DNA of 64,000 nt from Lachnospiraceae bacterium (lineage in GTDB: Bacteria; Bacillota; Clostridia; Lachnospirales; Lachnospiraceae): assembly GCA_045661345.1 (NCBI GenBank), contig JAZRFM010000016.1, forward strand, positions 3,626 to 67,625, given 5' to 3'. Shown here piece by piece: positions 5,749 to 28,045 of this stretch. The stretch's first letter is position 1, and each line of letters begins with the position of its first letter. A program made the position numbers and the translations under genes. Under the pieces are notes generated by a model. The model was given only the letters and a program-made list of their open reading frames with translations. It was not told the DNA's origin and did not search any database.

Positions 5749-6753
5749 CTACAGCTGAATATCAATCCCTGCGGGGGCTGAGATATCCGCGCCCTGAGGG
5801 ACGACAAAAGACCCAGCCGCATATCCGCTGAAATCAGCCTGCATTCCCGGAATGGCGGCCCCTTTTTCCATCTGGTGCTTGATCGTCGCTTTCAGATAAT
5901 CCATATCCGCCTTGACGATCGCTTTCTGCTCCGCAGCACGGTGCTTTCGCTTCAGCTCTTCCAGTTCCTCCCTGCTCATGTGCGGATCCAGAACCTCCAT
6001 GTTTTCCAGCTGAGCCATTGCCTCTTCCAGCTGTTCCAGCTCCTCCTCCCCGAATTCCGAGATCATCTCGTTCAACTCGGTCATCGCCGCATCGGAAAGC
6101 GCCTCACTGCGCTCCTTTGCCTGCGAAGTGAGTTCCTCCAGCATTTCGCTGCGTTCCTCGAAGATCGCATCCTCTGTTTCGGTCACTTCCTCTTCCTCGG
6201 CTTCGACCAGGGAACTTTTAAGCGCAGCGGCTGCTTCCTCGGAAGCCTCCTGTTTTTCGTCACGCTTCCCTGTGTTTTCCACCAGCTCCTCCAGCTCAAG
6301 GTGATGCTTCTTTTTCCTCGCCACCAGCTCCATTCGTTTGGCGTGAGTCAGTTCCGCCTGCAGATCCTCCGGGTCTCCGTCTCCTGCCGAGACTTTTCGC
6401 TTCACTTCCAGCACCTTCCGCTTCGCGGCAATCACGGCCTGTCCGGCACCGAGGGCATTTTTTGCCCTCAGGATCTTCATTTCCACTTCCTTGAAGTTAT
6501 ATGTTCTTTTGGATTTGGCTTCCTTCTTTTTGTTCTTCGTTGATGTGCCCGTCAGCTCCAGAAATCCGTTTTTCTTGTTCTGAGGCATCCGGCTTTCCTC
6601 CATGCCCCGAATCAGCGCTCTGATCTTCTCTGTTTTTTCCGCCTTTTCTTCCGCTTTTCGGTCGGCGGAGGCGTTATTCCAGAAGGAGGCGAGAGCTGAA
6701 CTCTTCTGCAGGGAAGATGTGTAAGGTTTTTGAGAAAAAAATACCGTATTCAT
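5749..6753 (-). CDS. Hypothetical protein, highly charged K/E-rich, predicted coiled coil
   Basis: 334-aa ORF with a GGGGAGGG RBS. Second gene of a two-gene minus-strand operon, 15-nt gap from the upstream gene. No recognisable catalytic motif. Confidence 0.7.
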   Translation of the reverse strand: MNTVFFSQKPYTSSLQKSSALASFWNNASADRKAEEKAEKTEKIRALIRGMEESRMPQNKKNGFLELTGTSTKNKKKEAKSKRTYNFKEVEMKILRAKNALGAGQAVIAAKRKVLEVKRKVSAGDGDPEDLQAELTHAKRMELVARKKKHHLELEELVENTGKRDEKQEASEEAAAALKSSLVEAEEEEVTETEDAIFEERSEMLEELTSQAKERSEALSDAAMTELNEMISEFGEEELEQLEEAMAQLENMEVLDPHMSREELEELKRKHRAAEQKAIVKADMDYLKATIKHQMEKGAAIPGMQADFSGYAAGSFVVPQGADISAPAGIDIQL

Positions 6754-6768: not shown

Positions 6769-7647
6769 TCATCCTTTGAAATCGATATGGGTTCCCATCG
6801 TCATCTCCGCTTCCGCCAACACATGGTCGGAGGCATACTGATAGGAAAACTCCCGCACTTTGGAAAGCAAACCTTCCAGAGAATCCGACTCGAAGGTCTC
6901 GACCGTATCCTTCTTTTCTATCGGCTCTCCTTCTTTTTTCTCAGTTCCCTTTTCTGCTTTCCGCTGATCTCTGGTCTTTTGGATGCGATCCTCGCGCTCC
7001 TGCTTCTCGGCCCTCTTCTTTTCCTTTATTTTTTGTTCTTTCTTTTCGGTCGCTTTCTTTTCTATGCGCTTCTTCTGCAGATCGTTTGCCTTGTCCACAG
7101 CCGCGAAAAAGCTTTCCTTGCCGTTCGCATCCACCGATATCCCGAAATTCTTCACGTTTGCGCCGCTGCTGGCAAGGCTGTTCTTTGCCTCTGTCAGCTT
7201 CGCACCGGACATGGAAATGATCCCCTCGTACTTTTTACGGAAGGATTCATCCTGAGCCATGCGTTCGATCTTGTCTTCGTCGATCAAAACCACCTGTTTA
7301 TTTGCATTGCCATAGGAAGCTGCGTTCGCCTGTACCTGACTCTTCGTGTCCCTGCTGACGGTGATGAATTCCATATTATGAAACTTTGATTTCAGCTTAC
7401 TCAAATAATCCTTCGCCTGATCCGAAAGCTTCACATCCCCGATTGTATTCCCATATTCGGTTACTTTTGGTACAAGGGAATTCTTTGCGTTGACAGGAGA
7501 AAAACCCGTGTTTGCGGTTTTATTCTCCTTTACAGAGCCGGTCTGACCGCTTCTTTCCGCAGCCGCCCCTTTTGTATTCTCCGGCTGCCCCGGTCTGTAC
7601 GCCTGATTTGCCTGCTGATAAGCAGAAATGCCGTAAAAACCCGTCAT
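6769..7647 (-). CDS. Hypothetical protein with a K/E-rich central tract
   Basis: 292-aa ORF with a GGGAGG RBS. The N-terminal part (GNTIGDVKLSDQAKDYLSKLKSKFHNMEFITVS ... VVLIDEDKIERMAQDESFRKKYE) looks like a conserved Clostridia hypothetical family whose name I cannot give with certainty. Confidence 0.7.
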   Translation of the reverse strand: MTGFYGISAYQQANQAYRPGQPENTKGAAAERSGQTGSVKENKTANTGFSPVNAKNSLVPKVTEYGNTIGDVKLSDQAKDYLSKLKSKFHNMEFITVSRDTKSQVQANAASYGNANKQVVLIDEDKIERMAQDESFRKKYEGIISMSGAKLTEAKNSLASSGANVKNFGISVDANGKESFFAAVDKANDLQKKRIEKKATEKKEQKIKEKKRAEKQEREDRIQKTRDQRKAEKGTEKKEGEPIEKKDTVETFESDSLEGLLSKVREFSYQYASDHVLAEAEMTMGTHIDFKG

Positions 7648-8292: not shown

Positions 8293-11200
8293 ATGGATGA
8301 GATGAATAGAAGCCGCATGAGAAACAACGCTTTCGCAATGGACGAAAAACAGTCCCAGCTGCAGCGCGATCTGGGAATGATCACGCGTGAACGAATGAAT
8401 CCCCTCTTTATGGAGAATCAGACAAATCAGGTCGATTTCGGATTCGAGATGATCGAGTACGTTTCCGAACAGCAGGTGGCGGCAAATACATTAAAAATCA
8501 ACCGCCTTTTGGATAATGCCGGGGATCTTCATCTCTCGGCCGCACAACGGACAGATCTTGAGATCCGGAGAAACCGGAATCTGGATTTTGAGCTTGTCAA
8601 TGATCAGTCAAAGTCGAAAGACAGTGACGAAATGAAGACTGTCAAGAACGATATCCGGGAATTTGAAAGAATCCTGTATCAGTCTGCCAAAACGGAGGAA
8701 GAGCGTCAGCAGATGATTGCCGATGCGATGGCACACTGCCAGAGGACGATTGCCGATTGCAATACCTATCTGAAAAAGGGGAAATCTTTCTTTTTCTGGA
8801 GGCAAGGTCGTTATGATCAGGTCGCAGCGGCAAAAGAGCGGTTTCAAAAAGACTACGATACCTTCTTGAAGCTTTTTGATGCGTCTGATACGATGAAAAC
8901 AGGGTTCCGCGCCAATGACAGACTGATCGATCTGATGAATGTGGAAGCGGTCAATGAACGGGTAGCGCAGAAGGCTATGGAGGAAGCTGAAGAGGAGTAC
9001 CAGAGGGAGAAGTATCAGGAACAGAAGACAGAGGAAGAATACGAGTACGAAGAGGGGGATTCGTTCGAAGAGATTCCGGCGGAAGAACAGGGGCAATATC
9101 AGGAACAGAAGACAGAGGAAGAATACGAGTACGAAGAGGGGGACTCATTCGAGGAGATTCCGGCGGAAGAACAGGAGCTATATCAGGAGCAGAAAGAAGA
9201 GCCCTGGCGCGAATGGGGAGGAGAAGCAGTACCATTTGAGCAGGAGCAGCAGCAAGAAGAGCAGCAGCAAGAAGAACAGCAGCAAGAAGAACGGCAACAG
9301 CAGCAGAAAGAGGAGCCCTGGCGCGAATGGGGAGGAGAAGCAGTACCATTTGAGCAGGAGCAGAAAGAGGAGCCCTGGCGCGAATGGGGAGGAGAAGCGG
9401 TACCATTTGAGCAGGAGCAGCAGCAAGAAGAGCAGCAAGAAGAACAGCAGCAGGAGCAGAAAGAAGAGCCCTGGCGCGAATGGGGAGGAGAAGCAGTACC
9501 ATTTGAGCAGGAGCAGCAGCAGGAAGAGCAGCAGCAAGAAGAGCAGCAACAGCAACAGCAAGAAGAACAGCAGCAACAGCAGCAGCAAGAACAACAGCAG
9601 CAACAGGAATTATATGGAACGAAAGTGCTGGATCAGCTGAAGAATCTGGCGAAAACGCCGGAAATGCAAGCGATCGAAGCTGCGATTACAGATATTCAAA
9701 CCGAGATGGCGAAGGAGATGCCCGCCGTCCAGGTGATGCAGGATAAGGATCAAGAGAAGAAAGCAGAACGCCGCGCGCGCAAAGGCAAGGATGGTGTGGA
9801 TGCTCTTTGCGTGAAAATGGTCAGACTTTTTGGCGCATTGGATCAGCGCATTAATGATTGCCTGAAGAAGGAAAATGGTGCGGGATATGGAGGAAATGAC
9901 GCATTAAAGGATATTCTGGAGAACCTTCGGGAACAGACGAAGGTGGATCGTACCCAATTCAAGGATAAGGTTGTTCAATATCGTTCCTATATCGCAGGGA
10001 ATGCAGAAGAAGCCGCCAAAAATCATTCATGGTTTGATGCATGGAAATATGTCCGTAGCGTTTCTTATGATCTGGATGAGAAAGACAATGGATTGGAAAC
10101 CGTAACCGTGGGAGCAGGTGCTTCGATGATTACGTTAGTCAAGGATACAAAGAAGAAACAAAAGGTTTATTTCCGTCAGGGAGAGAACGCAGGAGGATGG
10201 AATTCGGAGGAGCTGGTGAAAAACTTTATGGAGTCTATCAAAGGAGAAATCCAGCTCGACGACGTCACGAAAGAGGATCTCAAGAAGGCATTTGGACATT
10301 TATTCCCCCAAAATGTACTGGACGAGGTCAAGGACGCATACAGGAAGGCGAATGAAGCAAAGCTAGAACGTGCGATAGACAAATTGGACGAATTCAGAGT
10401 AAGCCAATATCGGAGTAGTGATGTCAGGAAAAATATAGATGGGTTTGTTCAGACCGCTGCCTGTCCGGGAATACTCAAGGAGATGTACCGGAATGCAACC
10501 GATAAAGTCAGAACAGAGATAGGAAAAGCCTTTACCTTATTTGCGAAGAAGCATTTCCAGTGGAGTTTTTCAGTTGGCTCTGCGAGAATCGATCCGGAGC
10601 AAAGTCTCACAGACCGAAATGTTGCGACAAGCAGGTTGGCCGGCTTGCTCGGGCTTAGTTCCATGATCAGCGATTCCAGAACAGCCGTGATCAAAAAGGA
10701 TGGAAAAGAGGTCATGGGAAATGTGATGGAGGACTCAAGGGGGAAAACAACATCTCAAATGAGGGGTGACTGGACCTACTCTGATAAGGCGATCGGCCAA
10801 GCGTATACGTTGCAGGTCTTTGATATGATATGCGGGCAGATTGACCGGCATCACGGGAACTATCATATCATCGAAAAGAACAGGAATGTGAACAGCATCA
10901 AGGCAATCGACAACGATATGTCCTTCGGAAAGCTGACGTGGGATACCATTGCAGAAGGGCACGAGAATATCTCGCCGCTTACGGAAAGTCATATGCGGGC
11001 AATGCCAATCGCGGTAATCAACCAGATACTTTCGCTGGATAAAAAGATTTTGCAGGAGGCGCTTGGTGATGTCCTGGACAGTGACAGCATGAATTATTTG
11101 CTGGATCGACTTGGAGGTGTACAAAGAACCATCATGGAATATGCCGAAAATCCCGAGTCCGGACTTCAGATAAGCGCGGACGGCAAGGCAGCCGAGTTCA

Positions 11201-11352
11201 CCGGAGAAGATAAGGACGACACGCTGCGGATGCTGAAAGCGGTCAGAAAAAACAGGGATGCCCGCACCTTAATCTGGTGGGATAACCTTACGGAAAAAAC
11301 CCTTGATGAGAAAATAGAGGCGAGAAAAAAGGAATTGGCGCAGAAAAAATAA
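8293..11352 (+). CDS. Large paralog B: family N-terminal domain, repeat/E-Q-rich linker, and a C-terminal PI3/PI4-kinase/HipA-like atypical kinase domain
   Basis: AAGGAGG RBS. The N-domain matches A. Gly-rich GAGASM (10111-10128), KVYFRQGE, catalytic-loop-like GQIDRHHGN (DRHHGN at 10843-10860), and metal-loop-like AIDNDMSFG (IDND at 10906-10917). Confidence 0.85.
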   Translation: MDEMNRSRMRNNAFAMDEKQSQLQRDLGMITRERMNPLFMENQTNQVDFGFEMIEYVSEQQVAANTLKINRLLDNAGDLHLSAAQRTDLEIRRNRNLDFELVNDQSKSKDSDEMKTVKNDIREFERILYQSAKTEEERQQMIADAMAHCQRTIADCNTYLKKGKSFFFWRQGRYDQVAAAKERFQKDYDTFLKLFDASDTMKTGFRANDRLIDLMNVEAVNERVAQKAMEEAEEEYQREKYQEQKTEEEYEYEEGDSFEEIPAEEQGQYQEQKTEEEYEYEEGDSFEEIPAEEQELYQEQKEEPWREWGGEAVPFEQEQQQEEQQQEEQQQEERQQQQKEEPWREWGGEAVPFEQEQKEEPWREWGGEAVPFEQEQQQEEQQEEQQQEQKEEPWREWGGEAVPFEQEQQQEEQQQEEQQQQQQEEQQQQQQQEQQQQQELYGTKVLDQLKNLAKTPEMQAIEAAITDIQTEMAKEMPAVQVMQDKDQEKKAERRARKGKDGVDALCVKMVRLFGALDQRINDCLKKENGAGYGGNDALKDILENLREQTKVDRTQFKDKVVQYRSYIAGNAEEAAKNHSWFDAWKYVRSVSYDLDEKDNGLETVTVGAGASMITLVKDTKKKQKVYFRQGENAGGWNSEELVKNFMESIKGEIQLDDVTKEDLKKAFGHLFPQNVLDEVKDAYRKANEAKLERAIDKLDEFRVSQYRSSDVRKNIDGFVQTAACPGILKEMYRNATDKVRTEIGKAFTLFAKKHFQWSFSVGSARIDPEQSLTDRNVATSRLAGLLGLSSMISDSRTAVIKKDGKEVMGNVMEDSRGKTTSQMRGDWTYSDKAIGQAYTLQVFDMICGQIDRHHGNYHIIEKNRNVNSIKAIDNDMSFGKLTWDTIAEGHENISPLTESHMRAMPIAVINQILSLDKKILQEALGDVLDSDSMNYLLDRLGGVQRTIMEYAENPESGLQISADGKAAEFTGEDKDDTLRMLKAVRKNRDARTLIWWDNLTEKTLDEKIEARKKELAQKK
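9013..9180 (+). repeat. Two tandem in-frame 84-bp repeats, each encoding YQEQKTEEEYEYEEGDSFEEIPAEEQ..
   Basis: Units start at 9013 and 9097; a third partial unit starts at 9181. A few substitutions separate the copies. Confidence 0.9.
9187..9606 (+). repeat. Four copies of a ~57-bp in-frame unit (KEEPWREWGGEAVPFEQEQ), separated by variable CAG/CAA/GAA (Q/E) tracts and ending in a poly-Q run
   Basis: The CCCTGGCGCGAATGGGG cores start at 9202, 9316, 9373 and 9469, giving spacings of 114, 57 and 96 bp. Confidence 0.9.
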
Positions 11353-11369
11353 AGGGGTAATCAGCAGGC

Positions 11370-13544
11370 ATGAAAAAACCTTCCAAAAAGCATTCACTCG
11401 GACTGACCGGAAAACTGATACGATTTGTCGTGATTTTCGTCCTGTTTCTGGGGCTTGTGTTTTTTATCCTTGGCGCTATGCAGCTCAGGCAGCTCAGCAG
11501 AATAGCAGAGAGGGAAGAAAAAAAACAGGAGGAACTGGTACAGGAAAAATCCAGAGAGTCCTTGTCTGAGCTGACCCATGAAAGTCTTTATGAAGTGATT
11601 GCCTGGGCAGCAGACAGGACGGATGACGAATTCTTCATCCTGCAGCACGATCTGCGGGAGCTGGGGGAGCAGGTAAAAGATGTGCTCCGCTATCCGGAAA
11701 GGTATGAGACGCAGACGGTGGAACCGCCGAAAAAAGAGAATGACGGGAAATATGTCCTGCAGCTTCTGTGTCCGGGATCCTATGAGGACATTTCTCCGGA
11801 AACGATGGAGGCCATGGGCAAGCTCGCAAATCTCGCGCCTGCCATGCGGGAAATGGTGGAGGGTAACGCCGGCTTCACGCTGGACAATTTTATTGCATTG
11901 CCGGATGGCGTCAGTATTGCCATGGATGATCTTTCCGGTGGAAAATATGAGGAAAACGGAAAGATTCGTGAATACGATGCTGCGAGTCGGCCGTGGTTTC
12001 AATACGCGCTGGGGCAGGATGGTGTCATCTTTATCCCGGCGCATAGCCATTTCTATAATTTCAACGAGGTTATCTACAGCGTCCCGGTGTATATAGACGG
12101 GGAGCTTGCAGCCGTACTGGAGGGCTCCACCCGGCTGGATATTCTGGAGAAGATGCTGGCTGAACAGAATATCGGAGAAAGCGGCTTTTCCATTCTGGTT
12201 TCTGACGGAGGGCAGCTTGTCTGCTCTCCGAGAACAAGCGGGGAATTGGGAATGCGGGAGGATGTATCGGTGGATATCCGCCCGGAAATCAATGCAGGCC
12301 TGGCAGAGGCTATTAACAGGGGACTTGCCGGAGAACACGGTGTGATGGTGACGCAGGTGGACGGAGAGACTTATCATGTTGCCTATGACAGACTGGAGAC
12401 GATTGGCTGGACACAGCTGGCTTTTCTATCTTCGGAGGAACTCCATGCACCGGCTCAGAGCCTGGTGGAGGATATAGAATCCTCGACGCAGGATATGCTT
12501 TCCGCTCTGCGAAACCGTTTCCGAAATACCGCCATACTCATGATACTCCTGATTGCCGCTCTTGCCGCATTCTCCATTGTTACGGTCAGCTCTCTTGCAA
12601 AGAAACGCATAGAACCTGTCAAGCATATGACGAAAAAGGTTCGTAACTTCTTTGCGGATGAGAATATGGCCTTTGAAATGGAGGACATCTACAAGACCGG
12701 AGATGAGATCGAGACGCTGGCACACTCTTTTGCGATGCTGTCCAAAGAGATGAAGGATTATGTGGCGGAAAACGTACGGATCTCTGCGGAAAAAGAAAGG
12801 ATCGGCGCAGAACTGAATGTCGCCACCAGGATTCAGGAAGATATGCTGCCGAACATTTTCCCGATATTCCCGGATAGAAAAGAGTTTGAGCTTTATGCTT
12901 CGATGAATCCTGCCAAAGAAGTGGGCGGGGATTTCTATGATATGTTCCTGATCGATGAAGATCATCTGTGCATGGTCGTCGGGGATGTGTCGGGAAAAGG
13001 CGTCCCGGCGGCTCTTTTCATGGTGGTCTCCAAGACGATGCTCAAAAACCGTGCCCAGGCGGGCGGAAAGCCCTCAGAGATCCTGCACGATGTCAATAAC
13101 AGCCTGTGCGAGGGCAACAAGGAGCATATGTTTGTGACGGTATGGCTGGGGATCCTCACCATATCTACCGGAGAACTGATAGAAGCAAACGCGGGTCATG
13201 AATATCCGGCTCTTTGCCGGGCAGGTGGTGACTATGAGCTGTATGAGGATAACCATGGATTTGTCCTGGGTGGTATGAAAGATATGCCGTATCAGGATGA
13301 TGAGCTGGTGTTAAAAAAGGGAGATGTCCTGTTTATCTACACGGACGGCCTGCCGGAGGCGACCAACGGAAAAGGGGAGCGTCTGGAAGAAACGGGAATG
13401 CTTGCAGTACTGAATGCGCACAAGGGAGATACGACGAAACAGCTGTTGGAAAACATAGCAGTAGAGGTAAGCAGGTTTGTCGGTGACGCCCCGCAGTTTG
13501 ATGATCTGACCATGCTGATTCTGAGGTATGCGGGATCGGAATGA
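11370..13544 (+). CDS. Membrane sensor PP2C phosphatase (SpoIIE/RsbU family): TM, extracytoplasmic Cache-like domain, TM, HAMP, PP2C
   Basis: N-terminal TM LIRFVVIFVLFLGLVFFILG. Cache-like SRPWFQYA ... GWTQLAF. Second TM AILMILLIAALAAFSIV. PP2C motifs GGDFYD, VGDVSGKGVPAALFM, YTDGLPEA and QFDDLTML are present. Confidence 0.88.
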   Translation: MKKPSKKHSLGLTGKLIRFVVIFVLFLGLVFFILGAMQLRQLSRIAEREEKKQEELVQEKSRESLSELTHESLYEVIAWAADRTDDEFFILQHDLRELGEQVKDVLRYPERYETQTVEPPKKENDGKYVLQLLCPGSYEDISPETMEAMGKLANLAPAMREMVEGNAGFTLDNFIALPDGVSIAMDDLSGGKYEENGKIREYDAASRPWFQYALGQDGVIFIPAHSHFYNFNEVIYSVPVYIDGELAAVLEGSTRLDILEKMLAEQNIGESGFSILVSDGGQLVCSPRTSGELGMREDVSVDIRPEINAGLAEAINRGLAGEHGVMVTQVDGETYHVAYDRLETIGWTQLAFLSSEELHAPAQSLVEDIESSTQDMLSALRNRFRNTAILMILLIAALAAFSIVTVSSLAKKRIEPVKHMTKKVRNFFADENMAFEMEDIYKTGDEIETLAHSFAMLSKEMKDYVAENVRISAEKERIGAELNVATRIQEDMLPNIFPIFPDRKEFELYASMNPAKEVGGDFYDMFLIDEDHLCMVVGDVSGKGVPAALFMVVSKTMLKNRAQAGGKPSEILHDVNNSLCEGNKEHMFVTVWLGILTISTGELIEANAGHEYPALCRAGGDYELYEDNHGFVLGGMKDMPYQDDELVLKKGDVLFIYTDGLPEATNGKGERLEETGMLAVLNAHKGDTTKQLLENIAVEVSRFVGDAPQFDDLTMLILRYAGSE

Positions 13545-13668
13545 GTGAGGAGGAGCAGATCCCCCTGCGGGAGGATCTGTCAGAGAAAGATTTACATTTG
13601 TCTGAAAAAAAGGTATTATTTGGTTGATTATCCAAAATTTTCTAAAAAAGAGGCGTAGAACTTCCGAG

Positions 13669-15849
13669 ATGAAGAAAAAATCCAGGATCCTTCCAACAGG
13701 ATTGGCCGGAAAACTGATTCGATTTGTGGTGGTTTTTGTACTAAGCCTGGGGCTTGCGTTTCTCCTGATCTCCCATATACAGCTCAACACCCTCAACAGA
13801 ATGGTGGAGCAGGAGGAAGAGAAACAGGCGGTTCTGGTACAGGAAAAATCCATGCAGTCTGTATCGGAGCTGACGGAGGAAAGTCTCTCCGAAATGATCG
13901 CCTGGGCGGCGGACAAGACGGACGACGAGTTTTTTATTCTGCAGCATGATATCCTGGTACTCCGGCAGCAGGTGGAGGACGTGCTCCGTCATCCCGAAAG
14001 ATATGAGACCCTGTTGGTGGAGCCCCCGAAAAAAGAAAATACCGGCAAATACGTCCTCCAGCTGGACGGACCGGAAGAATATGAAGAGTTTTCGCCGGAA
14101 ACGATGGAAACCCTGGGGAAGTGTGCGAATCTGGGCCCGATGATGGCCGAGATGGTGCGGGGAAACGAAGGCTTCACGCTGGATAATGTGATTGCGACGC
14201 CGGATGGCGTCTGTATCGGCATGGACAATCTGTCCGGCGGAAAGTTTGATGAAAATGGAGAGGTCATTCCCTATGACGCAAGAGAGTTTCCCTGGTTTCA
14301 GGATGCCATCAGGGAGAATACCGTTGTGTTTTCTGTTACACACAGTCATTTTTATGACCTGAACGAGGTCATCTACAGTGTACCGGTATACGTGGACGGA
14401 AAGCTGGGTGCGGTGCTGGAGGGGTCTTCCCGCATGGATATTCTGGAGCGTAAGCTGACGGAACGGAATATCGGTAAGGGCGGGTTTTCCATTCTGGTTA
14501 CCGATAACGGGCAGCTGGTCTGCTCTCCCCGGACAGACGGTGAGCTGAAAATGAGAGAGGATGTGACGGAGGATATCCGTCCCGGGATCAATGGCGGTCT
14601 GGCAGAGGTCATCAACAAAGGACTTTCCGGTGAGACCGGCGTAACGCTGACGCAGGTGGACGGCAATTCCTATTATACTGCCTATGCACCTCTTAATACG
14701 ATTGGCTGGACCCAGCTCGCTTTTGTCTCCGAGGAGGAACTGCAAGCGCCGGCAAAGAATCTGGTTCAGGAGATGGAAGCGTCGACGGACGATATGCTCT
14801 CCACCCTGCGGCATGAATTCGCGAATTCGGCCGTCCTGACAGTGTTCATTCTGGCAGGCATCATCCTCTTTTCCATCCTGATTGTCGGTTCCCTTGCGAA
14901 AAAACGGGTAGAGCCCATCAAGCATATGACGATCAGGATCCGTAACTTCTTTACTGATGAAGCTATGGTCTTTGAAATGGAGGATATCTACAGAACCGGA
15001 GACGAGATTGAGACACTGGCGCGGTCATTTGAGATATTATCCGAGGAACTGAAGGAATACGTGGCGGAAAACATACGGATCTCTGCGGAAAAGGAGAGGA
15101 TCGGTGCCGAGCTGAATGTCGCCAAAAAGATTCAGGAGGATATGCTGCCGAATCTCTTCCCGATTTTCCCGGACAGGAAAGAGTTCGATATCTATGCTTC
15201 CATGAAGCCGGCCAAGGAAGTGGGGGGAGATTTCTATGATATCTTCCTGGTCGATGACGATCATCTTTGTGTGGTTGTGGGAGACGTCTCCGGGAAAGGA
15301 GTCCCTGCGGCGCTTTTCATGGTGATTTCCAAGACAATGCTGAAAAACCGTGCGCAGGCAGGCGGTAAGCCCTCCGAGATTCTGTACGATGTCAACAACA
15401 GCCTGCACGAGGGAAATAAAGAAAAAATGTTCGTGACAGTCTGGCTGGGGATCCTTACCATTTCCACCGGGGAGGTGGTATGGGCCAGTGCGGGACATGA
15501 ATATCCCGTCATCGGCCGGGCAGAGGGTGACTATGAACTGTACGAAGATAAACACGGATTTGTTCTGGGCGGCATGAAAGGGATGCCCTATCGTGACAAT
15601 GAGCTGGTGTTGAATCAGGGAGATGCGTTGTTCCTCTATACGGATGGTTTGCCGGAGGCCACCAATGCGAAGGGGCAGCGGCTGGAGGAAAAAGGAATGC
15701 TTGCGGCATTGAACGCGCACAGAACGGATACGACAGAACAATTGCTGAAAAATGTTGCGGAAGAAGTGAACCGGTTTGTCGGGGATGCGCCGCAGTTTGA
15801 TGACCTGACAATGTTGGTATTAACATACGGGGAATCTGTCACGGAATAA
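13669..15849 (+). CDS. Tandem paralog of the preceding gene with the same Cache-HAMP-PP2C architecture
   Basis: ATG at 13669 (MKKKSRILPTGLAGKLIRF) aligns with the start of the upstream paralog. All PP2C motifs are conserved. The sensor domains are visibly more diverged than the phosphatase domains. Confidence 0.88.
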   Translation: MKKKSRILPTGLAGKLIRFVVVFVLSLGLAFLLISHIQLNTLNRMVEQEEEKQAVLVQEKSMQSVSELTEESLSEMIAWAADKTDDEFFILQHDILVLRQQVEDVLRHPERYETLLVEPPKKENTGKYVLQLDGPEEYEEFSPETMETLGKCANLGPMMAEMVRGNEGFTLDNVIATPDGVCIGMDNLSGGKFDENGEVIPYDAREFPWFQDAIRENTVVFSVTHSHFYDLNEVIYSVPVYVDGKLGAVLEGSSRMDILERKLTERNIGKGGFSILVTDNGQLVCSPRTDGELKMREDVTEDIRPGINGGLAEVINKGLSGETGVTLTQVDGNSYYTAYAPLNTIGWTQLAFVSEEELQAPAKNLVQEMEASTDDMLSTLRHEFANSAVLTVFILAGIILFSILIVGSLAKKRVEPIKHMTIRIRNFFTDEAMVFEMEDIYRTGDEIETLARSFEILSEELKEYVAENIRISAEKERIGAELNVAKKIQEDMLPNLFPIFPDRKEFDIYASMKPAKEVGGDFYDIFLVDDDHLCVVVGDVSGKGVPAALFMVISKTMLKNRAQAGGKPSEILYDVNNSLHEGNKEKMFVTVWLGILTISTGEVVWASAGHEYPVIGRAEGDYELYEDKHGFVLGGMKGMPYRDNELVLNQGDALFLYTDGLPEATNAKGQRLEEKGMLAALNAHRTDTTEQLLKNVAEEVNRFVGDAPQFDDLTMLVLTYGESVTE

Positions 15850-15890
15850 GTCTGTATCACAGTTCGTATGGTAATCCAGGTGGAGAACGT

Positions 15891-16313
15891 ATGAAAGAAA
15901 TAAAGGTAGCGGCAGATCGCGGCAATATGCAAAAGGTGCTGGATTTTGTGGAGGATGAGATCAAACAGAATCCTGATTTCAGCCACACGGATTTACTCCA
16001 GATTCATATGGTCATTGATGAGATCTTTGGAAACATTGCATCCTACGCTTACGATGACAGCGGGGGCGATGTGAAGGTCATGATGGATTTCGACAAAGCA
16101 CAGGGAAATATGACACTTGTGTTTTCGGATGAGGGGAAGCCGTATAATCCCCTGCAGAATGAGGATCCGGATGTGACGCTGCCGGCAGATAAACGCAGAG
16201 TCGGCGGTCTGGGGATTTTTATGGTAAAAAATACAATGGATGAAATAGCATACGAAAACAAAGACGGCAGGAACATATTGACAATGAAAAAACAAGGAGG
16301 TAACCATGTTTAA
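15891..16313 (+). CDS. Anti-sigma-factor-type serine kinase (RsbW/SpoIIAB-like, HATPase_c)
   Basis: 140 aa. N-box EIFGNIASYAY, G1 DEGKPYNP, G2 GGLGIFMVKN. Confidence 0.85.
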   Translation: MKEIKVAADRGNMQKVLDFVEDEIKQNPDFSHTDLLQIHMVIDEIFGNIASYAYDDSGGDVKVMMDFDKAQGNMTLVFSDEGKPYNPLQNEDPDVTLPADKRRVGGLGIFMVKNTMDEIAYENKDGRNILTMKKQGGNHV

Positions 16314-16608
16314 CGTAAAAACAGAGATTTCAGGCGAATCAATTCTCATTTCACTGGAGGGGCTGCTGGATTCCCAGACTGCACCGGAGCTGACAGCTGT
16401 GCTGGACGAAAATCTGGGCAAGGTGAACAACATCCGGTTTGACTTTGCAAAACTTGAATATCTGACGAGCGCGGGACTGCGGGCAATTCTGGTGGCACAG
16501 CAGGAAATGAACGACAAGAACGGTGTCATGACCGTAACAAACATCTCGGACGATATTATGAAGATTTTTGAGATGACGGGGTTTGCTGATGTATTGACGA
16601 TTGTGTGA
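16306..16608 (+). CDS. STAS-domain anti-sigma-factor antagonist (RsbV/SpoIIAA-like)
   Basis: 100 aa. The phospho-acceptor context FAKLEYLTSAGLRAIL is present. Its start overlaps the kinase gene by 8 nt. Confidence 0.88.
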   Translation: MFNVKTEISGESILISLEGLLDSQTAPELTAVLDENLGKVNNIRFDFAKLEYLTSAGLRAILVAQQEMNDKNGVMTVTNISDDIMKIFEMTGFADVLTIV

Positions 16609-16725
16609 AAAAATCGGAAAGACACATAACTTTCCGCTTGAGCCTGCCAAAGAATCTGCAAAATGGTATAATGAAAGTGATCTCCCTTCTTTCGCGGCTA
16701 GGGAGTGTTTCAGGAGGAGCCAGAC

Positions 16726-17631
16726 ATGAAAAGAGTAGCTATAAACGAAGCAATTTTGGATGCATTTTTGCCCATGGATTTCTACGGGAAGACGGACATG
16801 CTTTCTCTACCGGGCAGTTTTGCTCTCGGGATTACGCTGGAGGACGGAGAGGAAGATGAACCTGTGGGTTTGATCGTTTGTACGCAGGACGAAGACCGGC
16901 TCGTGATAGAATGGATTTATGTCATGCCGGACTGCCGTGGCGACGGGATCGGAAGCGAACTCCTGTATCTGGCATTCTGCGAGGGAGAAGCACGGGGGTT
17001 TGTGGATGCCGCTGCCAGAGTCTCGGATGAATTTGAAGCGAATGACTATGGGTGGAACACAAAAAGCTTTTTCGAAAATGAGGTGTTTTCCGGCACGGAG
17101 AAGGGGGAGTATGACTGGCGGATCTCCTTTCGTGAACTGGAAAAAATACTGATGCGGGATGAGGAGCTGAATGAATCCTCTGCCAGAAAAGTGATCCGGC
17201 TTTGCGACATGAAACCCGATGTGCTGAAAGAAGCAGCAGAATCGCTTGCAGCTCGTTTTGACGGGAGTGCTTCCCTGCCGATGGAGGCAGCGATCTCTGT
17301 TGCAAACTGGAACACAAGCTTCTTACTGAAGAAGGGCAATGACTACGTTGGCATCCTTCTGATCCGGAAAGTGGAGCAAACCTGGTATCCTTATCTGTTG
17401 TATGCATTTGATGATGAGGTGGGCGAGACGCTTATCCGTGCAGCACTCTACTGCAGCGAGGATGTCTGTATGCCCAAGGATGAGATTGCGATTGAGATCA
17501 AGACAATTTCTACGAAAAGATTGCTGCAGAAAATAGGATTGCCGGGACAGGCATATGACGTAACCTATTGTCTTTGTTCCATGAAGGCTTTTACAGAAAG
17601 AAAAGCTGAGGTAGAGACCGAAGAGTCTTAA
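16726..17631 (+). CDS. GNAT-family acetyltransferase-like protein, two-lobed
   Basis: AGGAGG RBS before the ATG at 16726. GNAT motif A-like IEWIYVMPDCRGDGIGSELLYLAF. Confidence 0.65.
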   Translation: MKRVAINEAILDAFLPMDFYGKTDMLSLPGSFALGITLEDGEEDEPVGLIVCTQDEDRLVIEWIYVMPDCRGDGIGSELLYLAFCEGEARGFVDAAARVSDEFEANDYGWNTKSFFENEVFSGTEKGEYDWRISFRELEKILMRDEELNESSARKVIRLCDMKPDVLKEAAESLAARFDGSASLPMEAAISVANWNTSFLLKKGNDYVGILLIRKVEQTWYPYLLYAFDDEVGETLIRAALYCSEDVCMPKDEIAIEIKTISTKRLLQKIGLPGQAYDVTYCLCSMKAFTERKAEVETEES

Positions 17632-17642
17632 GGGAGAACAGA

Positions 17643-18497
17643 ATGGAAATCATAGAACTGACCGAGGATAATATTCAGGAATATGTGTCTTTTATCGGTG
17701 AGGATGTGGCAGAACATATCGGCCGCATTTTCTATCGCGGACTCATTGCGTTGTCAGAAGACCAAAAGGATATGGCGGCCGGTATCATCTGGCGGTACAC
17801 AAACCTGACGGAAAAGAAGGATACGGAGAGTGTGATCGAGTGGCTCAAAATTCAGGATCCGGAGGCCGCCGGAGCGTTGTTTGGTGCATATTCCGAACAC
17901 ATTGCAAAGGAAAAGGCGGTACGTTCCCATGCTGTGATCCCCGTGAAGGACACCGGCAGGGAACAGCAGGCATTGAAGGAGGCAGGCTTCAAAATCAGGC
18001 TGACGGAAGGTGACAATATTATTGTTTCCCTGTCCGAGCTTTTCGAGCTTCCTATTATGAAAAACCGCAATGTACCGGACTATATCCATCCGCTGAATAC
18101 ATTGGTATCACGGCGTTTCCGGAGAGGTGTGCAGCAGTGTATCTCGATTGGTCAAAGGGGGCTTTGCGAGGATCTGGAATATTTGCCCATGACCTGGTTT
18201 GATCCGGACATCTCTTTCTATGCGGAAAAGGATGGTAAATTCTGTGGTTTTTTGCTGTTCCATAAGATGCCCTCGGATATGATCGCGATCCAGCTCATGA
18301 CCGGAATCGGAAAAGACTTTCAGCAGACGATTCTCGGCATGATACGGAAGTGTATGATCACTATGGAGGAAAACTACCCGGCGGATACGAAGATCCTGAT
18401 GAATCGACGTAATCAGGCGTCCTTGAAGCTTGCGGAAAAACTGTTACCGAGGGGCTTCGGAATCCCGGTCTTTGCGGGCGGCAGGGAGGAAAGCTGA
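17643..18497 (+). CDS. Hypothetical protein, possibly a distant GNAT-like paralog of the preceding gene
   Basis: AAGGGAGA RBS, 11-nt gap from the upstream gene, similar length and layout. No clear acetyl-CoA motif was recognised. Confidence 0.6.
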   Translation: MEIIELTEDNIQEYVSFIGEDVAEHIGRIFYRGLIALSEDQKDMAAGIIWRYTNLTEKKDTESVIEWLKIQDPEAAGALFGAYSEHIAKEKAVRSHAVIPVKDTGREQQALKEAGFKIRLTEGDNIIVSLSELFELPIMKNRNVPDYIHPLNTLVSRRFRRGVQQCISIGQRGLCEDLEYLPMTWFDPDISFYAEKDGKFCGFLLFHKMPSDMIAIQLMTGIGKDFQQTILGMIRKCMITMEENYPADTKILMNRRNQASLKLAEKLLPRGFGIPVFAGGREES

Positions 18498-18642
18498 CCT
18501 GCGTATCCTGACGGAGCGCTTCAGGAAAGACTGATTTACTCAGTCTTTCCTAAAAAAAAGATTCCTGCTGGTTTTGAAGACCGGCGAGAGCCCATCATCA
18601 GGAGTTTTGCGAATCAGGATGCTTCAAATTACATATTCAACA

Positions 18643-18692
18643 AAGGAAAGGAGAGCGTGGCTGATGGTCGCGCTCTTTCTTCGTCCTTTTTC
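18643..18692 (+). terminator. Possible terminator in the spacer upstream of paralog C
   Basis: Stem gagagcg (18651-18657) / cgctctt (18671-18677) with extended imperfect pairing, followed by ccttttt. Confidence 0.4.
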
Positions 18693-18738
18693 GAGCAGAG
18701 TACAATATTCAACTTTTGACATTTTTTTAACAAAATTA

Positions 18739-18767
18739 TTGCCATGTGCGTGAATTTGTCGTATATA
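18739..18767 (+). promoter_or_regulatory. Candidate promoter of paralog C
   Basis: -35 TTGCCA (18739-18744), 17-bp spacer, -10 TATATA (18762-18767). Homologous to 8210-8238. Confidence 0.5.
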
Positions 18768-18819
18768 ATAATAACAGTAGGGTGATAGTTGTTTTCAATA
18801 AATTCAGGAGGAAAACAAT

Positions 18820-21630
18820 ATGGATGATAGCTTGTTCTTTAACCGACAAAAACGTAGAAATGGGGAACATGTTGATCTGGCGTCAAGGATGAGAAGCAAT
18901 TTTCTTGACATGACTGAGTCGAAAATGCTCACCTACGCGCAGGCTCAGGAACAACAGTTCCGGGAAGCCAATCATGGATTTATGGAGATGGTTCCGAATG
19001 AATTTTATATGGAGGGCCGGACGAAGCAAAACGTGCTCATGATTGACGAGCTTCTGGATAGCGCCGATACCCTCCACCTCACCGCGACGCAGAAGGAAGA
19101 TCTGCGTATCCGGCGAAATCGTGTCAAAGACTTTGAGCTACTGAACCATCATACAAAAGATGACAGCAAAGAGATGAGATTGTTAAAGGAAGAGATTCGT
19201 GAGTACGATAGGTTATTGTCCAGAAAACCGGCATCACTCGAGGATCTGCAGCAATTTTGCGCGGAGATAGAAAGAAAGTGTGATGATGCGATTGCGCGTT
19301 GTGACAAATATCTGGGGAGGGGAAAGCCTCTGTCATTCTGGAAAAAGAACAGAAATGAACGGTATCATATGGTAGAAGAGGCGAAGGCGCGTTATTTGAA
19401 GGAAAAAAATGTCATAAAGACTCTTTCCCAGCTGACGGATGTCGACCAGTATTTACAAGCCGATGATACGATGCTGGATCTGATGAACATTGAAAAGATC
19501 AATGATCGGTTGGTGGAGCGTGAGATAGAACAAAGACGCAGGCAGTGGGAAGAGCAGCAGCAGCGGGAACGGGAAGAAGCAGAACGCCGGGCAGAAGCAG
19601 AGCGCCAGGCAGAAGAAGAGCGCCACCGTCGGGAACAAGAAGAGCAGCAGCGGGAACGGGAAGAAGCAGAACGTCGGGCAGAAGCAGAGCGCCGGGCAGA
19701 AGAAGAACGCCACCGTCAGGAAGAAGAGCGTCAGAACCAGCAGCAGAACGAGCAGAACCAGCAGCAAGAAGAGCAGCAAGAAGAGCAGCAGCAAGAAGAG
19801 CAGCAGCAACAGCAGCAGCAACAGCAGCAACAGCAGCAACAGGAACAGCAGGAATTATATGGAACGAAAGTGCTGGATCAGCTGAAGAATCTGGAGAAAA
19901 CGCCGGAAATGCAAGCGATCGAAACTGCGATTACAGATATTCAAACCGAGATGGCGAAGGAGATGCCCGCTGTCCAGGTGATGCAGGATAAGGATCAAGA
20001 GAAGAAAGCAGAACGCCGCGCGCGCAAAGGCAAGGATGGTGTGGATGCTCTTTGCGTGAAAATGGTCAGACTTTTTGGTGCATTGGATCAGCGCATTAAT
20101 GATTGGCTGAAAAAGAATAATGGTGCGGGAAATGGGGAAAATAACGCATTAAAGGCTATTTTGGAGAACCTTCGGGAACAGACGAAAGTGGATCGTACCC
20201 AATTCAAGGATAAGGTTGTTCAATATCGTTCCTATATCGCGGGGAATGCAGAAGAGGCCGCCAAAAATCATTCATGGTTTGATGCATGGAAATATGTCCG
20301 TAGCGTTTCTTATGATCTGGATCAAAACAACAATGGATTGGAAACCAAAACCATGGGAGCCGGTGCTTCGATGATTACGTTAATCAAGGATACAAAGAAG
20401 AAACAAAAGGTTTATTTCCGTCTGGGAGAGAACGCAGGAGGATTTAATGCGGAAGAACTGGTGAAAACCTTTATGGAGTCTGTCAAAGGAGAAGCCCAGC
20501 TCGACGACGCCACGAAGGAGGATCTCAGGAAGGCGTTTGTTAGTTTGTTTCCCCAACATATACTGAATGTTATCAAGAGGGGGTTCGAACGGCAGGATGA
20601 AGGTTTAATTCGTGAAGGGGTAGACGCACTGGATGCAAAGGGAGTGAGCAATTATCGGAGTAGTGATGTCAGGAAAAATATAGATGAGTATGCTCAGACC
20701 GATACCTGTCCGGACATACTCAAACAGGCGTACCAGCGTGCAAACGACGAAGTCAAAACAGAGATAGGAAAAGTGTTTACCTTATTTGCGAAAAAATATT
20801 TCCAGTGGAGTTTTTCAGTTGGTGCCGCGAAAATTGATCCGGAACAAAGTCTTACAGATCGAAATGTTGCTACAAGCAGGTTGGCCGGCTTGCTCGGGCT
20901 TAGTTCCATGATCAGCGATTCCAGAACAGCGGTGATCAAAAAGGATGGAAAAGAGGTCATGGGAAATGTGATGGAGGACTCAAGGGGAAAAGTGATAGAT
21001 CGAGTGAGGGGTAACTGGACCTACTCTGATAAGGCGATCGGGCAGGTGTATACATTGCAGGTCTTTGATATGATATGCGGACAGATTGACCGGCACCGCG
21101 GGAATTACCATGTCATTGAAAAGAACCAGAAGGTGAACAGCATCAAGGCAATCGACAACGATATGTCCTTCGGAAGGCTGACGTGGGATACGATTGCACC
21201 AGGGTACGAAAACCTTCCGCCGCTTACGGAATGCCATGTGCGTGCAATGCCGATCGCGGTAATCAACCAGATACTTTCTCTGGATGAAAAGATTTTGCAG
21301 GAGGCGCTTGGTGATGTCCTGGACAGTACTAGCATTGATTATTTGGTTGACCGACTTGCAGGTGTACAAAGAACCATCATAGAATATGCCGAAAAGGATG
21401 AGTCCGGACTTACGATAAGCGCAGACGGCAAGTCAGCCGAGTTTACGGGAGAAGATAAGGATGACACGCTGCGGATGCTGAAAGCGGTGAAGAAACAAAG
21501 CGGACTCCCCTATCATATTAGGCTCGATGGAGGAGAAACTATCTTTGATAATAATCAGATCTGGTGGGATAACCTTACGGAACAAACGCTTGATGAGAAG
21601 ATAGAGGCGAGAAGAGGGGAGTTGGCTTAG
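18820..21630 (+). CDS. Large paralog C: D-type N-terminal domain, E/R- and Q-rich repeat linker, and a kinase-like C-terminal domain nearly identical to that of B
   Basis: AGGAGG RBS. GAGASM and KVYFRLGE are present. DRHRGN at 21088-21105 and IDND at 21151-21162. Confidence 0.85.
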   Translation: MDDSLFFNRQKRRNGEHVDLASRMRSNFLDMTESKMLTYAQAQEQQFREANHGFMEMVPNEFYMEGRTKQNVLMIDELLDSADTLHLTATQKEDLRIRRNRVKDFELLNHHTKDDSKEMRLLKEEIREYDRLLSRKPASLEDLQQFCAEIERKCDDAIARCDKYLGRGKPLSFWKKNRNERYHMVEEAKARYLKEKNVIKTLSQLTDVDQYLQADDTMLDLMNIEKINDRLVEREIEQRRRQWEEQQQREREEAERRAEAERQAEEERHRREQEEQQREREEAERRAEAERRAEEERHRQEEERQNQQQNEQNQQQEEQQEEQQQEEQQQQQQQQQQQQQQEQQELYGTKVLDQLKNLEKTPEMQAIETAITDIQTEMAKEMPAVQVMQDKDQEKKAERRARKGKDGVDALCVKMVRLFGALDQRINDWLKKNNGAGNGENNALKAILENLREQTKVDRTQFKDKVVQYRSYIAGNAEEAAKNHSWFDAWKYVRSVSYDLDQNNNGLETKTMGAGASMITLIKDTKKKQKVYFRLGENAGGFNAEELVKTFMESVKGEAQLDDATKEDLRKAFVSLFPQHILNVIKRGFERQDEGLIREGVDALDAKGVSNYRSSDVRKNIDEYAQTDTCPDILKQAYQRANDEVKTEIGKVFTLFAKKYFQWSFSVGAAKIDPEQSLTDRNVATSRLAGLLGLSSMISDSRTAVIKKDGKEVMGNVMEDSRGKVIDRVRGNWTYSDKAIGQVYTLQVFDMICGQIDRHRGNYHVIEKNQKVNSIKAIDNDMSFGRLTWDTIAPGYENLPPLTECHVRAMPIAVINQILSLDEKILQEALGDVLDSTSIDYLVDRLAGVQRTIIEYAEKDESGLTISADGKSAEFTGEDKDDTLRMLKAVKKQSGLPYHIRLDGGETIFDNNQIWWDNLTEQTLDEKIEARRGELA
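19551..19855 (+). repeat. Two tandem 87-bp in-frame units (REREEAERRAEAER.AEEERHR...) followed by a CAG/CAA/GAA tract encoding poly-Q/E
   Basis: CGGGAACGGG cores at 19564 and 19651. The poly-Q run ends just before CAGGAATTATATGG at 19849. Confidence 0.88.
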
Positions 21631-21665
21631 AATAATCCCGCATGAAAAGACGCCCCGTAATACCG

Positions 21666-21700
21666 GCGCCCGCAGCGAGCTTCGCTGCGGGCGCTTTCCT
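21666..21700 (+). terminator. Terminator-like GC-rich hairpin between paralogs C and D
   Basis: Perfect 12-bp stem gcgcccgcagcg / cgctgcgggcgc with a 5-nt loop, followed only by a short tttcct. Confidence 0.55.
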
Positions 21701-21757
21701 GCCGGGAAAAAGAAGGAACCCATGGTAAAATCCTTCTGATCACAAGAGGAAAAAAGG

Positions 21758-27410: not shown

Positions 27411-27418
27411 AGGGGAGT

Positions 27419-28045
27419 TCAAGCCCTGGTCTGGGTCAGGGCAGTATCAATCAGGTTTTTTAATTCTACGCGTTCCACGGAGTCCAGCTCGATGTCCGGC
27501 TTTTTTTCCAGATCGATCAGATCCAGGATCACCTTACAGCCGTTCCTTTTCAGCGCCCTTGACAAACGGGGTCTCACATGATCCCAGTTGATCTCAAGCT
27601 CCAGAATCCAGCTGGGAGCGGTTTGAATCAGGCGACGGCGCATAAGAGGAAGGAGACTGTCCGGGATGCGGTTTTGCTGCAAAAAGCGGTAAACAGCGCA
27701 AAGATCGGCATAGTCGACATATTCCGTTTCGATGGCGTCAAATATGGCGCCCACGGTAGCATAACGCCCGTCTGTCAGGTCTGCGATCTCGATGGAACGG
27801 ACATACTCCGGCTTCCAGAACACGACCCTGTCGCTGCCCGCATCGGTTTCATATTGCCTGATGAGCCGGTTCAGCTCTTCCATCGCGAGGGTTCCCAGTT
27901 TCAGCTCGAGAAGCGCAGAAGGGGACAGATCCTGAATCTCCTGCAGGGTCTGATAGCCGGCTTTCCTGAGCAATGCGAAGGTGCGGGAGGAAAGAGCACC
28001 CTTTTTATGCAATTCTTCCAAATAAACAGGTGTCATAAAGAACAT
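27419..28045 (-). CDS. Hypothetical protein with two RNA-polymerase-alpha-CTD-like helix-hairpin-helix segments
   Basis: LSSRTFALLRKAGYQTLQEIQDL and LSRALKRNGCKVILDLIDL. Start chosen at ATG 28045 (28036 is also possible), because the listed 28270 start overlaps the divergent lipoprotein gene. Its stop abuts the start of the GT2-GH3 gene. Confidence 0.6.
   Translation of the reverse strand: MFFMTPVYLEELHKKGALSSRTFALLRKAGYQTLQEIQDLSPSALLELKLGTLAMEELNRLIRQYETDAGSDRVVFWKPEYVRSIEIADLTDGRYATVGAIFDAIETEYVDYADLCAVYRFLQQNRIPDSLLPLMRRRLIQTAPSWILELEINWDHVRPRLSRALKRNGCKVILDLIDLEKKPDIELDSVERVELKNLIDTALTQTRA

Follow-up and report, generated by a model that had tools for sequence, protein, structure and literature searches.

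A putative sigma-independent partner switch linked to tandem GNAT and ParN-type large-protein genes in a Lachnospiraceae bacterium

On a modest balance of the comparative evidence we favour the reading that the genes at positions 11370–16608 of the stretch analysed here (two SpoIIE-type PP2C phosphatases, an RsbW-like kinase and a STAS antagonist) would form a sigma-independent partner switch, recruited to control at the protein level an adjoining unit of tandem GNAT proteins and large proteins. The stretch, referred to below as the window, is 64,000 nt of contig JAZRFM010000016.1 (C16, 81 kb) of Lachnospiraceae bacterium assembly GCA_045661345.1 (3.0 Mb, 38 contigs, completeness score 100%). 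Partner switching is the textbook means by which Firmicutes control alternative sigma factors. To our knowledge only a handful of sigma-independent partner switches are known and for most of these the target is unidentified. The locus would supply a defined candidate output for such a switch, namely the tandem GNATs and the giant proteins that carry the N-domain common to the large paralogs (ParN, which we tracked with our own hidden Markov model, HMM), and the support for this output comes from permuted synteny and co-diversification in a non-sporulating rumen member of the Lachnospiraceae.

Window positions 8293–24130 are a run of genes all on one strand, from large paralog B to large paralog D, within which the switch genes are as follows.
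11370–13544, + strand: PP2C-1, 724 residues; SpoIIE (PF07228) E = 1e-46, dCache_1 41.7 bits
13624–15849, + strand, probable start ATG 13669: PP2C-2; SpoIIE (PF07228) E = 1.4e-48, dCache_1 49.7 bits
15891–16313, + strand: RsbW-like GHKL serine kinase, 140 residues; HATPase_c_2 (PF13581) E = 3.8e-20
16306–16608, + strand: single-domain STAS antagonist, 100 residues; Pfam STAS E = 1.9e-12, TIGR00377 62.7 bits
The Pfam dCache_1 cut-off is 45 bits, which PP2C-1 just misses and PP2C-2 exceeds, and the STAS protein passes the 53.45-bit cut-off of TIGR00377 (anti-sigma-antagonist superfamily). These domains and coordinates confirm the gene order (PP2C, PP2C, RsbW-like, STAS) given in an earlier reading of the window, hereafter the original prediction. 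As judged from sequence both phosphatases consist of a first transmembrane segment, an extracytoplasmic dCache region of ~345 residues, a second transmembrane segment, a linker and a SpoIIE-type PP2C domain, and they are tandem paralogs (72% identity in a gap-free alignment). Their PP2C domains align with those of Rv1364c, RssB and 6k4e, and the motifs GGDFYD, GDVSGKG, YTDG and FDDLT are the same in both, so the claim that both keep the PP2C motifs holds. It had also been claimed that the Cache domains are more diverged than the catalytic domains, and this is so to a modest degree (68% identity in the sensor region, 82% in the catalytic domain), but the further idea of two ligands rests on that difference and is weakened by relatives with one phosphatase (L031 and L085, listed below; L084 and L033/L088 have two). 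The ratio of non-synonymous to synonymous substitution rates is 0.18 in the sensor region and 0.06 in the catalytic domain, and both halves of the proteins are, on these sequence comparisons, under purifying selection. Because synonymous sites are near saturation the duplication is old; an attempt to date it was abandoned as the tree backbone is unresolved and path lengths alone hint at duplication before the species splits.

The kinase aligns with Bacillus subtilis RsbW (6m36) and SpoIIAB (1th8), its best solved-structure matches, and ten relatives drawn from two clades show no variation in its N box (E44, N48), G1 box (D80, G82), R102 and G2 box (G105–G108, GGLG). In the STAS protein Ser55, invariant among the aligned relatives, aligns with the phospho-serine of SpoIIAA, which in the 1tid variant is replaced by alanine. 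Matches to equivalog models are low: 41 bits for the kinase against a cut-off of 145 (RsbW and SpoIIAB), and far under the cut-off for the STAS protein (SpoIIAA). The 3′ end of the kinase gene and the 5′ end of the STAS gene share 8 nt (ATGTTTAA), an arrangement retained in L084, L085, L087 and L088. Thus the kinase-before-STAS order and the overlap pointed out in the original prediction are both real. Because modules from other genera that are not related to this one (L007, L014 and L029) share the order, it was rejected as a diagnostic. From motifs and alignments the phosphatase, kinase and antagonist parts are intact and constitute a predicted functional module.

RsbW relatives were gathered from the genomes of the genus and by a search of 5.8 billion proteins. 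Orthologues at more than 69% identity are present in only two of five other species of the genus, and the protein search gave a compact RsbW clade at 56–84% identity followed by a fall to 53% or less. Eight clade contigs were compared, comprising the window, L031 (from the genome search) and the six longest contigs of the protein-search clade. In all eight (RsbW identity 59–100%) the switch adjoins tandem GNATs and a ParN-type large protein, and at least four gene orders are seen.
Window, RsbW 100%: paralog, PP2C, PP2C, RsbW, STAS, GNAT1, GNAT2, paralogs
L084, RsbW 84%: order as in the window
L085, RsbW 77%: PP2C, RsbW, STAS, GNAT1, GNAT2, three paralogs
L031, RsbW 71%: PP2C, RsbW, STAS, paralog, GNAT1, GNAT2, paralogs
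L033 and L088, RsbW 69–71%: PP2C, PP2C, RsbW, STAS, paralog, GNAT1, GNAT2 (in L088 a 2520-residue giant with an ABC1 domain lies upstream)
L086, RsbW 63%: PP2C, STAS, GNAT1-like, 2467-residue ParN + ABC1 protein, RsbW (GNAT1-like and giant genes lie between STAS and RsbW)
L087, RsbW 59%: GNAT2-like, RsbW/STAS (8-nt overlap), PP2C, giant protein homologous to the 2467-residue protein of L086
RsbW genes that are no more than 53% identical lie in other neighbourhoods, for example with HAD or MatE genes.
L089, [Clostridium] aminophilum: PP2C–STAS–HAD–RsbW
L090: MatE–PP2C–RsbW
The genus contains another RsbW clade, 41–48% identical to the window RsbW and with STAS preceding RsbW, that is also GNAT-linked.
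G003: PP2C, STAS, RsbW, GNAT2-like, 1920-residue protein
G001, contig C23: STAS, RsbW, PP2C, GNAT2-like
G005: STAS, RsbW, GNAT1-like, 1333-residue ParN protein, GNAT2-like, DUF6033

In a maximum-likelihood tree of RsbW the GNAT-linked copies fall into an eight-row clade (support 98/95), a three-row clade (98/96) and one singleton, so that the linkage label changes three times on the tree compared with 10.4 times in shuffles (none of 500 shuffles was as low). The GNAT2 tree recovers both RsbW clades (100/100 and 100/99), together with the inner branching of the second, and joins them (100/99) with the GNAT2 of L087 and with L058, a Butyrivibrio GNAT2 without a switch in its vicinity; the remaining unlinked GNAT2 paralogs fall outside this joined clade. 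The parallel trees show that the two families were inherited and duplicated together. The original prediction had named the GNATs and the paralogs as candidate outputs, a proposal with which the linkage in all eight contigs, the shuffled gene orders and the parallel trees agree, and had taken the co-location of these genes to suggest one signalling system, which is consistent with the co-occurrence across the RsbW clade; it had asked whether cassette and paralogs ever occur together in other genomes, and in the RsbW-clade contigs they do.

A profile search of the genome with Sigma70_r2 found no sigma-70-family gene on C16, which bears out the original observation that no sigma gene follows the switch, and six elsewhere in the genome, named by NCBIfam as SigA, FliA/WhiG, SigH-like and three of the ECF (extracytoplasmic function) type. 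There is no SigB/F/G-type sigma in the genome (best SigBFG score 127 bits against a cut-off of 234). Likewise no Pfam sigma domain was found within 10 kb either side of the locus in L084–L088. The FliA/WhiG gene lies on contig C25 and scores 273 bits, above the TIGR02479 cut-off. Parts for partner switching are plentiful by comparison: there are four strong RsbW-like kinases (two stand-alone, one fused to PP2C and one fused to an ABC ATPase), seven STAS matches and 17 large SpoIIE-type sensor phosphatases of 585–836 residues, and our own RsbW HMM detected an RsbW-like domain in six transporters. When three of these six were checked with Pfam, two MatE fusions were confirmed with HATPase_c_2, and the third, an SDF symporter, gave no HATPase_c_2 match at E < 0.001. 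Set against six sigma factors, these counts exceed what the sigma inventory can absorb.

Two genes for GNAT-like proteins follow the switch, as had been noted originally, and are separated from it by possible transcription signals.
16615–16636, unstranded: hairpin directly after the STAS stop, with no + strand T-run; a weak or partial terminator at best
16644–16672, + strand: promoter-like site matching the consensus (CTGCCA, 17-nt spacer, TGnTATAAT), in the 117-nt gap before GNAT1
16705–17631, + strand, likely start ATG 16726: GNAT1, of tandem-GNAT size; Acetyltransf_1 (PF00583) E = 4.8e-9
17643–18497, + strand: GNAT2, tandem GNAT fold by AlphaFold model
GNAT1 is identified by its Acetyltransf_1 match and carries the classical acetyl-CoA motif A (RGDGIG); a sequence search against the PDB gave only marginal matches, none with E better than 0.4. 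For GNAT2 neither Pfam nor NCBIfam gave a match and BLAST detected no similarity to GNAT1, and its identification comes from an AlphaFold model built from 14 homologues (pLDDT 90, pTM 0.84). The Foldseek matches of this model (E 2e-9, probability 1.0, TM-score ~0.6) are tandem GNATs, namely MAB_4324 (7q3a), the clavulanic-acid tandem GNAT (2wpw) and FemX, with glucosamine N-acetyltransferase also among its best PDB matches. Motif A (R/Q-x-x-G-x-G/A) is not conserved in an alignment of GNAT2 and 13 relatives and, as no acetyl-CoA motif is conserved in the family, GNAT2 may act as a partner without catalytic activity. Counted from paralog B to GNAT2, the intergenic gaps are 18, 79–124, 41, −8, 117 and 11 nt, on one strand throughout. 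Consensus matches in the region are no more frequent than expected from shuffled sequence, so the transcription signals are weak evidence. A common promoter of GNAT1 and paralogs B and C was considered and rejected, since aligning the upstream regions revealed no homology beyond the CTGCCA hexamer.

Several of our own observations weigh against the favoured reading. The linkage has a narrow range, one genus and a few relatives from metagenomes, and because L033 and L088 are near-identical there are ~7 independent cases rather than eight. The promoter-like site and hairpin between STAS and GNAT1 suggest that the GNATs may be transcribed separately from the switch. A group-3 sigma factor, FliA/WhiG, is present in the genome. 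The ParN model, although confident (pLDDT 86), has no PDB match with E below 0.4 and bears no resemblance to sigma domains. Finally, a profile scan of genome contigs yielded 21 kinase-fold loci (rumen/gut Lachnospiraceae, Butyrivibrio and a few others), and outside the genus the unit of kinase-fold and GNAT genes stands without any nearby switch (17 of 19 loci).

It should be noted that GNAT1- or GNAT2-like genes frequently lie next to kinase-fold genes outside the genus. Within 10 kb of these outside loci no RsbW was found, the nearest switch parts being one PP2C at ~7.5 kb and one STAS at 7 kb. Even in the genome of the window a complete switch is missing from four further kinase-fold loci, of which one (C36) lies beside a fusion of MatE with an RsbW tail. 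Genes of the GNAT2 family are rare: of the 201 genera of the family that were sampled, three have them. GNAT2 was rejected as a general partner of RsbW, for the GNAT2 genes of other genera adjoin kinase-fold or GNAT1 genes, and neither RsbW nor STAS lies within 1.5 kb of them. Because the unit of paralog and GNAT genes occurs outside the switch clades without a switch, it is the older and wider entity, and the distribution of sequences indicates that this unit acquired the switch as a lineage-specific regulator, which is not an obligate part of it.

Under the favoured reading a ligand of the extracytoplasmic dCache region would set the activity of the membrane PP2C phosphatase or phosphatases, which would remove the phosphate placed on Ser55 of STAS by the RsbW-like kinase. 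Unphosphorylated STAS would then bind the RsbW-like protein, which would in turn release an alternative partner, a GNAT or ParN protein. Our preferred candidate for the released partner would be GNAT2, alone or complexed with GNAT1 or a ParN domain, because it has no recognizable acetyl-CoA motif and has co-diversified with RsbW; GNAT2 as the direct target is nevertheless a tentative assignment. What we infer, as opposed to observe, is every contact between proteins, which way the regulation runs and which protein is the direct target. It is similarly possible, though we would not lean on it, that the RsbW-like protein acts as an ‘anti-enzyme’ factor which directly sequesters GNAT2 or the ParN domain of the Fam20/ABC1-like giants. 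If this were true an extracellular ligand would switch a cytoplasmic machine of acetylation and atypical kinases without a transcription step, partner switching would gain a new class of output, and there would be a first regulatory handle on an uncharacterized kinase-fold family of rumen/gut Clostridia.

Other explanations of the same locus differ in where they place the output. One, which we consider somewhat unlikely, follows the logic documented for SiaC–SiaD (PMC8457831) and for SypA, RbaV and HmpV (PMC8256260), with STAS itself as the output: unphosphorylated STAS would bind a GNAT or ParN protein directly and activate it, the role of the RsbW-like kinase being confined to switching STAS off by phosphorylation. 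SiaA is indeed the best NCBIfam match of PP2C-1, though far under the cut-off, and in L086 STAS directly precedes the GNAT1-like and giant genes whereas RsbW lies 7.5 kb downstream. Conversely, the gene that abuts GNAT2 in L087 (7-nt gap) is that of RsbW and not that of STAS, and sequence alone does not separate this scheme from the favoured one. A canonical anti-sigma switch with a remote target, most plausibly the FliA/WhiG factor of C25 or one of the ECF type, with the GNAT and paralog genes as mere neighbours, seems to us quite improbable. Such a target is available in FliA/WhiG, the best solved relatives of the RsbW-like protein (6m36 and 1th8) are true anti-sigma factors, and remote sigma targets have been discussed for other scattered Rsb systems (PMC11619594, PMC8256260). 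However, the genome has no SigB/F/G family member, four RsbW-like kinases and six RsbW-like transporter tails would have to compete for one group-3 sigma, the kinase falls far short of the RsbW and SpoIIAB equivalog models, and the permuted linkage and parallel RsbW and GNAT2 trees would be left unexplained.

The linkage might also be purely genomic, the cassette and the paralog/GNAT array forming one variable, lower-GC island shaped by recombination among the paralogs, with no direct regulatory contact, and the real output being unlinked. The base composition of the region (given below), the near-identical segments within the paralogs that favour rearrangement, the restriction of the linkage to a narrow lineage and the possible separate promoter before GNAT1 are all compatible with this. 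Against it, the linkage persists to 59% RsbW identity, and to ~45% in the second, paralogous clade, through at least four gene orders, one of which places GNAT and giant genes within the operon of the switch, and other RsbW clades of the same genomes have no GNAT/ParN neighbours; we therefore regard it as unlikely. The favoured reading, protein-level control of the GNAT/ParN unit by the switch, would account for the permuted linkage and the parallel trees that the remote-sigma explanation leaves aside.

The large paralogs and other genes around the switch are listed below.
1–2697, + strand, 5′ end 183 nt before the window: paralog A; ParN HMM E = 1.6e-84, no Pfam match
5749–6753, − strand: 334-residue E/K-rich coiled-coil-like protein
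6769–7647, − strand: DUF6033 protein (PF19498, E = 9.8e-70)
8293–11352, + strand: paralog B; ParN, Q/E-rich repeats and a Fam20-like kinase-fold C-domain (weak Fam20C match, E = 4.6e-4)
18820–21630, + strand: paralog C; ParN and Fam20-like kinase fold
21758–24130, + strand: paralog D; ParN and a diverged kinase fold (the ‘pseudokinase’ of the original prediction)
Paralog B, whose stop lies 18 nt before PP2C-1, matches both the kinase-fold and the ParN HMM, while the C-terminal region of paralog A is unrelated and has no kinase fold. The giants of L086 (2481–9884, 2467 residues, which also has a ParN N-domain) and L088 (1–5365, 2520 residues) carry an ABC1/UbiB-type kinase domain (PF03109) and not the Fam20-like fold. 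The large proteins of L036, L039, L040 and L087 have no Pfam match, and BLAST ties them either to ParN or to the giants with ABC1. Taken together, the sequences of the large proteins suggest a polymorphic family in which the kinase-like module can be swapped. The DUF6033 gene, which with the coiled-coil-like gene lies between paralogs A and B, recurs beside the cluster in L031, L040 and L084. PADLOC defence models run on 10 proteins of the locus gave no relevant match. The GC fraction is 0.45–0.51 across 1–24 kb (the paralog, switch and GNAT region) and 0.52–0.57 further downstream (24000–64000), where there are housekeeping genes such as those for glutamine synthetase, Dtd and an amidohydrolase. 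Genes of the GH3 family (adenylate-forming amido synthetases) recur beside STAS/GNAT clusters.
Window 24795–27422, − strand: GH3 fused to a GT2 glycosyltransferase
L033, 18417–19988: GH3
L034, 5494–6588: GH3
L037, 5073–6677: GH3
L088, 17301–19025: GH3, accompanied by genes for an ATP-grasp enzyme and an ABC transporter
These neighbours hint at a theme of small-molecule conjugation or export.

Elsewhere in the genome, which lacks the sporulation sigma factors SigE/F/G/K, the 17 sensor phosphatases, four kinases and seven STAS proteins resemble a network in which many inputs feed few switches. Other loci that carry such parts are as follows.
L076 (C23, 9900–12597): MatE exporter with a C-terminal RsbW-like HATPase_c_2 domain, directly adjoining a GNAT2-like gene
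L077 (C36, 235–6564): MatE exporter with an RsbW-like tail, divergent from a GNAT1-like and kinase-fold gene pair
L079 (C5, 59600–63900), without a sigma gene: Baseplate_J-like, Tail_P2_I-like, STAS, ABC_tran ATPase fused to an RsbW-like HATPase_c_2 domain
L080 (C11, 17900–25120) and L083 (C8, 13200–17700): STAS genes after pairs of open reading frames (ORFs) of ~600–730 residues
The ORF pairs of L080 and L083 encode putative peptidase-containing ABC exporters, judging by their N-terminal sequences, and on C11 genes for PP2C and RsbW come after the STAS gene, where the contig ends. A pairing like that of L079 is found in L037, from another family, where a baseplate-J-like protein, a 368-residue homologue and STAS are followed by GH3-like, MatE-like with an RsbW tail, PP2C, RsbW and two putative DUF4157-like ORFs (identified by eye); the L079-type switch may be linked to a contractile-tail-like cluster.

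The locus could serve as an entry point both to what the expanded PP2C/STAS/RsbW networks of gut/rumen Clostridia regulate and to the role of the uncharacterized Fam20-like kinase-fold family, and none of the papers in the collection searched joins RsbW, GNAT and partner switching. Compared with the classical RsbU–RsbV–RsbW/SigB and SpoIIE–SpoIIAA–SpoIIAB/SigF systems of B. subtilis, the locus has the same kinds of parts, a SpoIIE-type PP2C, a single-domain STAS protein with the serine and an HATPase_c_2 kinase, and its proteins find their best solved-structure matches in RsbW, SpoIIAB and SpoIIAA. It differs in that there is no sigma gene in the operon and no SigB/F/G in the genome, the STAS gene follows that of the kinase, two phosphatases are present and both are membrane dCache sensors, and scores are far under the RsbW, SpoIIAB and SpoIIAA equivalog cut-offs. 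As a cognate sigma was looked for and not found, the locus is not a strict member of the sigma-controlling Rsb/SpoIIA family. Sigma-independent outputs are documented for SiaABCD (PMC8457831) and for SypE/SypA, BtrUVW and Hmp (PMC8256260), and in Anabaena PCC 7120 the HenR/All4160/Alr3423 system regulates an enzyme directly (bioRxiv 10.64898/2026.04.08.717354). SiaABCD of Pseudomonas aeruginosa (PMC8457831, PMC7647112) combines a membrane PP2C (SiaA), a kinase (SiaB) and a small partner regulated by phosphorylation (SiaC) with an output enzyme encoded in the same operon, as is proposed here; SiaA tops the NCBIfam matches of PP2C-1, and 6k4e is among its solved-structure matches. With 53 bits against the 700-bit cut-off of the SiaA equivalog NF038263, however, the locus is not a SiaABCD orthologue; its phosphatases have a dCache sensor domain, no GGDEF gene for a SiaABCD-type diguanylate cyclase output is present in it, and the candidate outputs are instead tandem GNATs and giant kinase-fold proteins. 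The HenR/All4160/Alr3423, SypE/SypA, BtrUVW and HmpUVW systems are, like the locus, partner-switch-like with an enzyme or an unknown non-sigma output but, unlike it, they involve no GNATs or Fam20/ABC1-like kinase folds; in the Anabaena case the STAS domain lies within the regulated enzyme, whereas here STAS is a free 100-residue protein and the candidate enzymes are encoded by separate genes. By its predicted parts and gene content the locus belongs among the sigma-independent switches, with SiaABCD, SypE/A, BtrUVW, Hmp and HenR/All4160.

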